From Syntrophomonadaceae bacterium (GTDB lineage: Bacteria; Bacillota; Syntrophomonadia; Syntrophomonadales; Syntrophomonadaceae), in NCBI GenBank assembly GCA_012718855.1, contig JAAYBS010000151.1, forward strand, positions 1-54,619: DNA of 54,619 nt, read 5' to 3'. The position numbers and the translations under genes are program-made. Shown here piece after piece: positions 1,807-42,344 of the stretch (positions within the stretch are counted from its first letter, which is position 1; the number at the start of each line of letters is the position of its first letter). A model generated the notes under the pieces. It was not told the DNA's origin. It worked only from the letters and a program-made list of their open reading frames with translations, and did no database searches.

Positions 1807-2010
1807 AAAAAACCCCACCGAGCCGTGGTGCCGTAGTTTAAACCTGACTCAGCAGGTGGGTGCCCTCCCATGTATCTTTTGTTTCCTGGCTAAACAGGTA
1901 TACAGTCCACACACGGAGTCCGGGTTCCCTAGTTTTTGGTGTTGGCAAAAACATTCGGCTATTCTCACGAACACAGCAGGGATTTCCTGACTTAATTGTT
2001 TTTTGCTTGT
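1807..2010 (-). ncRNA. candidate small RNA or leader of about 200 nt downstream of aspS; class unassigned
   Basis: Minus-strand sigma-A-like promoter: TTGAAT (2045..2040), 17-nt spacer, TATTAT (2022..2017). A GC hairpin followed by a U6 tract lies at 1830..1807 (CCACG-GCU-CGGUGG, UUUUUU). The unit is relatively GC-rich in an AT-rich gap and has no credible ORF. Confidence 0.3.
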
Positions 2011-8442: not shown

Positions 8443-8473
8443 AAAAAACTTCTCACCCGTATGGGGCGAGAAG
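8443..8473 (-). terminator. first T-box terminator
   Basis: CUUCUCGCCCC-AUAC-GGGUGAGAAG followed by UUUUUU. Confidence 0.75.
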
Positions 8474-8773
8474 TGTTATACTCCCGCGGTACCACCCAAA
8501 TTGCCATAATATTGGCCCGCTTGTCAAAGGATACAGGTTTATCCGATATCCCCTTCCTGGTAACGGTGGAAGTTTCCGCCTCGACCTACTTTCCTTTAAA
8601 AGGTTTCAGCCGGGTGCTCCGAAGTGAACTTCAATCCGCTTCCTTATAGAGATGCTTGCAGCCGGTGGCATCCCCTCTCTGAATAACTTCACGAACCTAC
8701 TTTACTTCTTCACTGCATTTATTTTTATAAAGATAATTTATCATAACATATCAGGCTATGATTTGTAAAGCTT

Positions 8774-35604: not shown

Positions 35605-35685
35605 ATTGGTTCCTCCTTCCGAGCACCTGAATAATCAGGGGCTCAACAATTGACTCTGCTGCAAAAAGTTCAATGTTCTTATTTT

Positions 35686-35883
35686 GATGCATAAATATTC
35701 CGTCGCAGACTTCGCATGGTAAACGTCCACTGCTTGCCTTGCATCTCCAGGGGGACGTTCCGATTCCGCATCCGTGCAGGGCGTCACTCTCGCCCCGTCC
35801 ATGGGGCTCGCCCCCTTACGATGCTTCGTCTTCGCAGGGTGTTTTTGCCATGCTCGTCAACGGCTCCTGCATACTTATGCATC
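35686..35883 (+). repeat. GC-rich long-hairpin element, copy A (candidate structured ncRNA, unclassified)
   Basis: 198 nt. Closing stem GATGCATAA/TTATGCATC. The 76-nt core at 35745..35820 is 74/76 identical to the reverse complement of 42063..42138. The strand label shows orientation relative to copy B only; the transcribed strand is unknown. Confidence 0.75.
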
Positions 35884-35914
35884 CGAATAAGGTTCTGGTG
35901 GGGTAAACACCAAT

Positions 35915-37009
35915 TTAATCTTCATCGTTATTTTCCGATGTAAACAAGGCAGCCGCAAATGCTTCCGCTGAAAAATCTCTTAAGTCTTCCAGGCCCTCGC
36001 CGATGCCAACCAGTTTAACCGGAATTTCCAATTCCTTTGCAATAGCCAGTACTATACCGCCTTTGGCAGTACCGTCCAATTTGGTTAATATTATACCTGA
36101 AACCCCGGTTACTTCTTCGAAGATTTTTGCCTGACTAATGGCATTCTGTCCGGTGGTGGCATCCAATACCAACAGAACTTCATGTGGTGCCCCGGGAATT
36201 TCTCGTTCGATTATCTTGCGCAGTTTTCCAATTTCTTTCATCAGGTTGGTTTTATTCTGCAAACGGCCGGCTGTATCAATTATTAATACTTCAGTCTTTC
36301 TGGCCCGGGCTGCATTAAGAGCATCATACACAACGGCTCCAGGATCTGCACCTTCCTGTAATTTGATTATGTCTACCCCAATCCGATCTGCCCATATCTG
36401 TAATTGATCAATAGCTGCAGCCCGAAAGGTATCAGCTGCTGCCAATAATACTTTTTTGTTTTCATTTTTAAAACGATAAGCCAGTTTGGCAATAGAAGTT
36501 GTCTTACCGGCACCATTTACACCTACTACCAGTATAACTGAAGGCTGGTACTCATTAATTAAAAGCCGGTTTTCATTGGTCTCCAATAAGGTCTTTATCT
36601 CATCCCTGATTAAAGCCGTTACTTGCTCCGGTTCATTAATTTTATTTTTTTTCGCTGCTGTTTTAACATTCTTTACTAATTCGAGACTGGTTGGTACGCC
36701 CACATCAGCCTCAATTAATATTTCCTCCAATTCATCCCAGAAATCATCATCCAGCTTGCGTGAACTCTTTACCAGGGTATCAATTTTGTTACTGATGTTA
36801 TGTCTGGTTTTGCTTAATCCCCGTTTAAACTTATCAAAAATCCCGTCTTTGGATTTGGCTTCGGATTTTAACTCATCACTTTCTGATTCATCTTTAATCT
36901 GCGTAGCCTCATAAGGTGTTGATTCCTCATAATCCTTTACCAGCAGTTCATTAGATTCTTCCGGCACATTATCTTTTTTCTTGTTTTTAAATTTGTCAAA
37001 TAATGCCAT
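35915..37009 (-). CDS. ftsY: signal recognition particle receptor FtsY
   Basis: 364-aa ORF with an acidic N-terminus and an SRP GTPase domain (GVNGAGKTT, DTAGR, TKLDG). Confidence 0.95.
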   Translation of the reverse strand: MALFDKFKNKKKDNVPEESNELLVKDYEESTPYEATQIKDESESDELKSEAKSKDGIFDKFKRGLSKTRHNISNKIDTLVKSSRKLDDDFWDELEEILIEADVGVPTSLELVKNVKTAAKKNKINEPEQVTALIRDEIKTLLETNENRLLINEYQPSVILVVGVNGAGKTTSIAKLAYRFKNENKKVLLAAADTFRAAAIDQLQIWADRIGVDIIKLQEGADPGAVVYDALNAARARKTEVLIIDTAGRLQNKTNLMKEIGKLRKIIEREIPGAPHEVLLVLDATTGQNAISQAKIFEEVTGVSGIILTKLDGTAKGGIVLAIAKELEIPVKLVGIGEGLEDLRDFSAEAFAAALFTSENNDED

Positions 37010-41621: not shown

Positions 41622-41666
41622 ATGAGCGTCAATTCCCTTTTGTGAGCGACTTTTTTAATAGACGCA

Positions 41667-41789
41667 GCAACATTAATTGCGGAGCCAACAGGCGGAGCAT
41701 CAGCAACCTTAATTGTGTTCATAGCCGAAGGCTTGAACACATCAGTAGTCCTGTGGGCAACATTAATTACACCCCACAGGGTGTATCAG
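41667..41789 (+). repeat. three tandem modules of GCAAC(A/C)TTAATT, a variable 16-26 nt segment, then ATCA(G)
   Basis: Modules at 41667..41702, 41703..41745 and 41757..41789. The variable segment of module 2 (GTGTTCATAGCC-GAA-GGCTTGAACAC) and module 3 (ACACCC-CACA-GGGTGT) is a hairpin. In module 1 it is a direct repeat (GCGGAGC..GCGGAGC). Confidence 0.7.
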
Positions 41790-41914
41790 TGGTACCGGTT
41801 ACGGTGTAGTCCCCGTTAGGGGGATAACGCGGATTTTTTTGTTGATAATATTGAGTTAGGTTATATATTGGGAGTTATGCTTCCTATTAAAGTAGTATGT
41901 TTCTATTTTTTTGA

Positions 41915-41954
41915 ACCTGACTTTACCTGACTTCCACTGACTTCACCTGACTGA
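41915..41954 (+). repeat. four tandem 10-bp phased repeats (CCTGACTTNN)
   Basis: CCTGACTTTA CCTGACTTCC ACTGACTTCA CCTGACTGAT. The CTGACT cores fall at exactly 10-bp spacing (41917, 41927, 41937, 41947). Confidence 0.8.
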
Positions 41955-41996
41955 TTATTAATTTTAAAATAGTGTTATCCCTGCCAAAATCCGTTT

Positions 41997-42200
41997 GGGT
42001 AAATAAATATGCAGGAGCCGTTGGGACGGAGCATGGCGGAAACACTCTGCGAAGGCCAGCAGCGTAAGGGGGCGAGCCCCATGGACGGGGCGAGAGTGAC
42101 GCCCCGCACGGATGCGGAATCGGAAAGTCCCCCTGGAGTCGCTGGACAAACAAATGGTGTTTCCCATGTGGAGTCCCGGCGACAGAATATTTATTCACCC
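41997..42200 (-). repeat. GC-rich long-hairpin element, copy B (inverted relative to copy A)
   Basis: 204 nt. Read on the minus strand, the closing stem is GGGTGAATAAATAT/ATATTTATTTACCC (14 bp, one G-U). The core 42138..42063 matches the copy A core. Confidence 0.75.
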
Positions 42201-42224
42201 TTACCAGCGAATCATACCTTTTTG

Positions 42225-42265
42225 TAACCTGACAGTTATTTATAATAAATACAAAATTCAGGTTA
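42225..42265. repeat. inverted repeat TAACCTGA-N25-TCAGGTTA
   Basis: Perfect 8-bp arms at 42225..42232 and 42258..42265 flanking an AT-rich spacer. Confidence 0.6.
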
Positions 42266-42289: not shown

Positions 42290-42344
42290 ACAGGACTACT
42301 GATGTGTTTTCACCCTTACGGGTTAAGAACACCAATAATGTTGC
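42290..42344 (-). repeat. fourth hairpin module, inverted copy of the module at 41703..41754
   Basis: The reverse complement reads GCAACATTATTG-GTGTTCTTAACCC-GTAA-GGGTGAAAACAC-ATCAGTAGTCCTGT. The last 19 nt (AACACATCAGTAGTCCTGT) are identical to 41736..41754. The apical stem differs but still pairs (ACCC/GGGT versus AGCC/GGCT). Confidence 0.7.

Follow-up and report, generated by a model that had tools for sequence, protein, structure and literature searches.

The closest analogue of the repeat described here is bcr1, the group A repeat of the Bacillus cereus group (Okstad 2004; Klevan 2007; reviewed in PMC3184786). It is a dispersed, non-coding element of about 155 bp, bounded by 5-bp direct repeats and with no linked transposase, whose distribution differs between close strains and whose predicted stable fold is kept by compensatory changes (PMC3184786). 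Bacterial MITEs are classically marked by long and stable stem-loops (PMC3184786), and similar in kind to the present repeat are the Correia/NEMIS elements of Neisseria, the ERIC/YPAL elements of enterobacteria and the Chunjie elements of Geobacter (PMC3184786). [quoted passage not shown]

In this work we have analysed a stretch of 54,619 nt of Syntrophomonadaceae DNA (the window), in which an initial annotation had recognised two homologous GC-rich hairpins, here called copies A and B, and had leant towards a structured RNA of the riboswitch or sRNA type. This leaning did not hold, since terminal inverted repeats, target-site duplications and dispersed, polymorphic copies were found. Most probably A and B are copies of a mobile repeat of MITE-like type rather than of a dedicated RNA gene, and the repeat occurs in a small clade of Syntrophomonadaceae which are uncultured and come from anaerobic digesters. 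With bcr1 it has in common a Firmicutes host, the character of a small non-coding repeat, direct repeats at its flanks and compensatory changes, a comparison which is one of described features and not of sequence relationship; the two differ in that bcr1 folds into two stem-loops resembling a cruciform and is known to be transcribed, whereas the element reported here is a single long hairpin, about 260 bp in size, whose GC-rich apex is strongly conserved. The Correia, ERIC and Chunjie elements are present in tens to hundreds of copies, produce TA or other fixed duplications and are best conserved at their ends, whereas in our case few copies were seen, the duplication is of 4-5 bp and conservation rises towards the centre. 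No description of such a repeat was found in the literature on Syntrophomonas.

The neighbour genes around copies A and B are all on the minus strand, in the order rnc, a radical-SAM gene, copy B, birA, smc, ftsY, copy A, a gene for an MTA/purine nucleoside phosphorylase, and mtnA. Copy A is antisense to its neighbouring genes, and copy B has the same sense as its own, including birA downstream of it. In the spacer between ftsY and the phosphorylase gene, which is 310 nt long in the window, copy A begins right behind the stop codon of ftsY (35915-35917), and 46 nt separate its end from the phosphorylase start codon. The identical FtsY protein was found on metagenome contigs from anaerobic digesters and in MAG GCA_040768765.1, and the relatives of this FtsY carry the label Syntrophomonadaceae. 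In two of the related loci genes of this string were each called as two ORFs, i.e., smc in L039:1472-5044 (878 + 304 aa) and rnc in L008:1875-2593 (75 + 151 aa), each reflecting a frameshift or an assembly error.

Across copies the unit of the element is 255-263 bp long and is composed of two mutually near-complementary arms of ~95 nt each, with a non-palindromic, GC-rich core of 76 nt at the apex (Table 1). Its terminal inverted repeats are imperfect and ~17-19 bp in length, with the consensus TGRTTYYACTGCAAAAA at the left end and the reverse complement of this at the right end. In the copy of locus L037 the left terminus (TGATTCTACTGCAAAAAGG) and the reverse-complemented right terminus (TGATGACACTGCAAAAACC) match at 15 of 19 positions, and the reverse-complemented right terminus of the L036 copy (TGATTCTACTGAAAAAACC) matches the left end of L037 at 16 of 19. 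Within the 562 kb of fetched sequence the consensus was found, at up to two mismatches, at element ends only. The family profile matches copy A at 35662-35919, and copy B has a degenerate left end and no clean target-site duplication. Four ORFs cross the copies, all of them of low complexity and not conserved, on which ground a small-protein reading was ruled out; the ORF placed inside copy A by gene callers loses its ATG in L029 and L037.

Table 1. Positions of the features of copies A and B in the 54,619-nt window.
Feature	Position	Strand	Basis or remark
Copy A, whole element, 260 nt	35651..35910	+	Boundaries from empty-site comparisons
Copy A, left target-site duplication, CAAT (CAATT if 35651 is counted)	35647..35650	.	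Single in the L039 and L021 empty sites
Copy A, left terminal inverted repeat, TGACTCTGCTGCAAAAAG	35651..35668	+	Two mismatches to the consensus TGRTTYYACTGCAAAAA
Copy A, TTCAAT (TATAAT or CATAAT in other copies)	35669..35674	+	Alignments; possible weak -10 box
Copy A, long imperfect hairpin	35686..35883	+	Folding; extent as in the initial annotation
Copy A, GC-rich 76-nt core (70% GC)	35745..35820	+	
Copy A, right end with degenerate right terminal repeat, GGTTCTGGTGGGGTAAACAC	35884..35910	+	Alignments
Copy A, right target-site duplication, CAAT	35911..35914	.	
Copy B, whole element, ~262 nt, between the radical-SAM gene and birA	41973..42234	-	
Copy B, long imperfect hairpin	41997..42200	-	Folding
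Copy B, GC-rich 76-nt core	42063..42138	-	

The homology of the two hairpins, proposed in the initial annotation, is borne out by a column identity of 87% over ~255 aligned nt, and the identity of 74/76 which it had counted between the two cores was reproduced; a 28-nt core pattern is present in the window at these two places only, with none expected in shuffles. The extent that had been given to the homologous unit fell short, however, as the unit continues for ~35 nt more on the left and 27 nt more on the right, to a total of ~260 nt. Both copies do form the long stems described (-74.5 kcal/mol for A and -87.8 kcal/mol for B; z = -4.3 and -6.0, respectively, with 0/200 shuffles as stable), and the two double substitutions and the single change of G-C to G-U claimed for the outer stem can be read from the alignment of A with B. 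A GC content of over 60% had also been put forward; this is true of the core, at 70%, but not of the hairpins, at 57-59%, in a window with a GC content of 41%.

Comparison with related genomes showed that copy A is a precise insertion by which ATTG (CAAT or CAATT on the plus strand) was duplicated. Clean empty sites are present in the two closest lineages, L039 (FtsY 93% identical) and the sister species L021 (FtsY 94%), in which the spacer between ftsY and the phosphorylase gene is of 50 and 28 nt, respectively. The empty site of L039 reads GATTAAATTGTTGAAC (on the gene strand, GATTAAATTGTTGAACGATCCCTGCATTATGCAGGTG), and the occupied site of the window reads GATTAAATTG-(260 nt)-ATTGTTGAGC, or GATTAAATTG-(260 nt)-ATTGTTGAGCCCCTGATTATTCAGGTG on the gene strand. 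A second and independent empty site is that of the copy at trpC in L036, which is flanked by TAAGT on both sides, and for which L047 (TrpC 81%) has a single TAAGT at its empty site (L047:3760-3790). Other flanking direct repeats are (A)AGAT at L037 and TTTTAAT at L029; the flanks of L030 share AAT only (CTAAT vs TGAAT). The targets are AT-rich intergenic sites (NAAKT^T), and 4-5 bp of the target are duplicated. The length of the duplication, which reads as 4-5 bp at copy A and as up to 7-8 bp elsewhere, is not exactly fixable because the element ends and the flanks overlap.

The empty sites also bear on the reading of the hairpins as a cis-regulatory leader (riboswitch or attenuator), or as a terminator, of birA-smc-ftsY and the methylthioadenosine salvage genes. 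Such a role would fit with the location of both copies in intergenic spacers of a single gene string and with the co-direction of copy B and the downstream birA, yet it is already contradicted by the short spacers of the two closest lineages, from which copy A is wholly absent, and some strains of the species itself are without copy B. Furthermore copy A runs antisense to the genes around it, other copies are found beside unrelated genes and in several cases between convergent genes, and there is no U-tract after the hairpin; we give this reading hardly any probability. A conserved syntenic RNA gene was likewise ruled out by the empty sites.

Polymorphism at strain level was observed for both copies. 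Copy B is present on six of the ten strain contigs which encode the identical FtsY and is absent from the other four; L004-type strains are without it, and in the sister species just the right end of copy B is left. Since copy B lies between two GTCAGGT units, its loss by recombination between these units is plausible. Strain variants of copy A are distinguished by three substitutions, one of which is in the core at 35767, and within the species the in-place constraint on the core is therefore not absolute.

The spacer which holds copy B has further features of its own. The 10-nt units with GTCAGGT (window 41915-41951, minus strand), which contain copy B, lie upstream of birA; the array was present in every relative examined (L004, L021:5290-5335 and L039:20-115), with inverted CCTGAC units opposite it and an AT-rich spacer between the two in L039, and this run may be a regulator-binding array. 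A perfect 19-nt inverted repeat (AACACATCAGTAGTCCTGT; window 41736-41754 and 42290-42308) encloses both copy B and the GTCAGGT array, and its left arm is part of a small hairpin 3' of the radical-SAM gene. The second hypervariable feature of this spacer is a hairpin-rich segment of ~280 nt upstream of birA (window 41640-41910, minus strand) with repeated AATTAATGTTGC motifs, which is tandemly duplicated in L039 (L039:120-420) and in whose place L004-type strains have ~55 nt.

The distribution of the family beyond the window, in which two copies are present (n = 2), was addressed by a metagenome scan with a 20-mer of the core. Six new loci were identified, with elements 80-88% identical to A and B and with no resemblance to the window outside the element. 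Further copies and remnants total eight, all beside unrelated housekeeping genes of related digester genomes. The number of copies seen, ~10 loci in all, is low, which counts against the MITE reading. The neighbours of the further loci include uvrC, a HAD hydrolase, a ROK kinase, trpC, citrate synthase, an acyltransferase and a DNA methylase, and no transposase was found among the genes adjoining them; several of these copies sit between convergent genes. The 20-mer bait undercounts the family, as it is mutated in the strain variants of copy A and in the L048 copy, and when one genome of each species was scanned strictly with it, two chance matches inside genes were all that came up. Scans of viral contigs with a core 17-mer, with a 20-mer made of the end plus TATAAT and with a second core pattern gave chance matches in coding sequence or none, and no useful match emerged when copy B was compared with plasmids and phages by BLAST.

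Some members of the family have decayed. The remnant L037:6384-6456, which was found with the family profile, and the element at L043:4757-4871 (also in L044-L046), which is carried by many contigs of one species, are both without the core and have kept the ends and the outer arms; the deletion in L043 is bounded by two CTCC repeats. L028:635-959 is a diverged copy without recognisable terminal repeats, and is followed by a tandem repeat of its first ~66 nt.

The insertion at trpC warrants particular attention. The copies of L036 (2428-2690) and L043 appear orthologous because they share the insertion point and the locus-specific left end TGGTTTCA.... Third codon positions of trpC are 79% identical between the two, the arms of the elements are about equally diverged, and the core, which is deleted in L043, has 0/76 differences from the family consensus in L036. 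In L048 (923-1199), with TrpC 98% identical to that of L036 and near-identical flanks, the same site with the same TAAGT duplication is occupied by a different, A-like member of the family in the opposite orientation. A simple in-place inversion was rejected for L048, the interior being 81% identical to that of L036 and closer to A and L037. Either a hot spot was hit twice or one copy was replaced by another, and copy-to-copy replacement could alone keep the cores alike.

The family thus displays the features by which MITEs are recognised, i.e., a small size without a conserved ORF, terminal inverted repeats, a duplication confirmed by empty sites, and dispersed, polymorphic copies. The initial annotation had held that many copies with target-site duplications and no covariation would make the element a plain MITE; copies with such duplications were indeed found, but a covariation signal was present too, if in the arms only. 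Neither the window nor the 48 loci (562 kb in total) yielded a full-length insertion sequence with such ends which could supply the transposase. The left end of the element, GATTCTACTGCAAA, agrees with the inverted repeat of the IS6 family at 11 of its first 14 bases, as known from IS1216 of the IS6/IS26 family (GGTTCTGTTGCAAAGTTTT; PMC2920175). End matches of this quality are at chance level in the window, with five found and 6.5 expected. IS6-family elements make 8-bp duplications. An IS6/IS26-derived MITE was rejected, given the chance-level resemblance of the ends and the duplication of 4-5 bp at copy A by the empty-site test; for these two reasons no IS family has been assigned, and the resemblance of the ends may be taken as a lead only.

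As a MITE-like repeat the element would be mobilised in trans, by a DDE-type transposase whose gene lies elsewhere. It inserts into AT-rich intergenic sites with the duplication of 4-5 bp of target. Its copies decay through internal deletion and are gained, lost or replaced at the level of strains, and the hairpin would be a consequence of the palindromic DNA which would form in read-through transcripts of either strand.

Another mode of transposition would be movement as single-stranded DNA, or site-specific recombination, with recognition of the folded hairpin itself, in the manner of the IS200/IS605-type PATEs, of REP/RAYT or of attC-like sites. Pairing and apex are better conserved than the ends, both strands fold, and one site is filled in both orientations in the near-identical strains L036 and L048, all of which would be in keeping with such recognition. 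Against this, IS200/IS605 elements and REPs are not known to have terminal inverted repeats or target-site duplication, and attC cassettes insert at attI, whereas the present element has terminal inverted repeats and its target-site duplications have been verified at empty sites. HUH and tyrosine recombinase genes were not found in the neighbourhood, and for the PATE/REP class sub-terminal or short hairpins of 20-40 nt would be expected, as opposed to the ~200 nt of the hairpin of this element. Movement by hairpin recognition is thus judged very improbable, and transposition as a MITE is the mode we prefer.

The nature of the pairing was analysed across the family. The consensus structure computed by RNAalifold has 69 pairs, and in seven family members double-sided changes affect eight of these (12 cells), compared with 3.8 pairs (4.2 cells) when the columns were shuffled and with 1-5 in slid controls. 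Compensatory changes in excess of the shuffled controls mean that something maintains the pairing. All of the double changes are in the outer arms, the core helices being invariant both under the alifold model and under the three-way junction which the initial annotation had proposed for the core, across the 16 pairs of which there was no covariation, so that the data speak neither for nor against this junction. In 7/7 copies it is the reverse strand which folds at the lower energy, and the consensus fold is of -79.9 kcal/mol in reverse and of -69.4 kcal/mol in forward orientation. Selection on the RNA of one strand predicts an excess of G.U among one-sided changes; the minority one-sided transitions at paired positions, on the strand read by the initial annotation, were 11 G.U vs 12 A.C, so that no strand-specific RNA selection is visible. 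A covariation which is limited to the outer arms and has no strand bias therefore supports a maintained palindrome and not a particular RNA, in a set of only seven to eight related copies in which RNA covariation is indistinguishable from the maintenance of a DNA palindrome. We conclude that the pairing belongs to the palindromic DNA element, and that it would fold in any transcript crossing it, in either orientation.

The initial annotation could not assign the element to a riboswitch or sRNA class, and no Rfam family matches it: in a search of the window against Rfam 15 there was no match to the element at the gathering score, and around both copies only noise at E <= 10. No tRNA-like gene was detected by ARAGORN, and a scan for promoters or terminators at the copies detected none. 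An internal promoter was rejected, the TATAAT box having a -35-like hexamer only at 13-14 nt, which is unworkable, and none at 16-18 nt. Elsewhere in the window Rfam models matched at full length a 6S RNA gene (1808-1985, minus strand; RF00013, 85 bits) and a T-box leader (8459-8722, minus strand; RF00230, 109 bits).

Conservation is not uniform along the element. Copies differ from one another by a mean of 5% in the core when the bait is left out, by 22-24% in the arms and by yet more at the ends; the evolution of the core is slower than that of the arms by a factor of at least four. For the three copies which were not found by means of the core bait (A, B and L048), 5/76 core columns vary as against 39/130 arm columns (p = 4e-5). 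Conservation that is highest at the centre is the opposite of what is expected of a purely end-dependent transposon, from which the preserved pairing of the arms would not be predicted either. The conservation of the core may be due either to selection on the core or to the overwriting of one copy by another. With selection, the 76-nt core would be a functional module, i.e., a domain of structured RNA or a site in the DNA to which a protein binds, active at the tip of the long stem and selected in the resident copies, and the element would be a mobile RNA gene or a mobile binding module. This is the direction in which the bait-free column counts point, together with the L036 core, identical to the consensus in spite of the 79% identity of trpC third positions to L043, and with the double changes which preserve the stem pairing. 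The TTCAAT/TATAAT-like box, situated in a bulge which is confined to the left arm, and the orientation of six out of seven copies in the direction of the upstream gene are also consistent with it. On the other hand, covariation is missing from inside the core, G.U and A.C changes show no asymmetry and the reverse strand is the more stable one, and neither an Rfam match nor a promoter nor a terminator was found. In addition, core-less derivatives persist, one of them on many contigs (L043-L046), a strain variant of copy A has its substitution at 35767 within the core, and the copy replacement suggested by L048 could be enough alone to account for alike cores. Taken together, a selected module in the core seems unlikely to us, if clearly less so than recognition of the hairpin during movement. 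If it were true, the palindromic transposon would be a vehicle which spreads a small RNA gene round the genome, with the arms as a scaffold of which the pairing matters and the sequence does not.

The MITE-like repeat of which A and B are most probably copies represents a previously undescribed family in the syntrophic fatty-acid oxidisers of anaerobic digesters, and it offers presence/absence markers at strain level. For annotation it implies that intergenic hairpins of this type should not be filed as riboswitches or sRNAs. By analogy with other bacterial MITEs the hairpin may alter the processing of mRNA or read-through, an effect which for copy A would be exerted at the junction of ftsY with the methylthioadenosine salvage genes that follow it. 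The insertion sets the two apart by a hairpin of about -80 kcal/mol, which may change the expression of the operon. The pattern of conservation, if it held in a larger sample, would indicate a function carried by the element.
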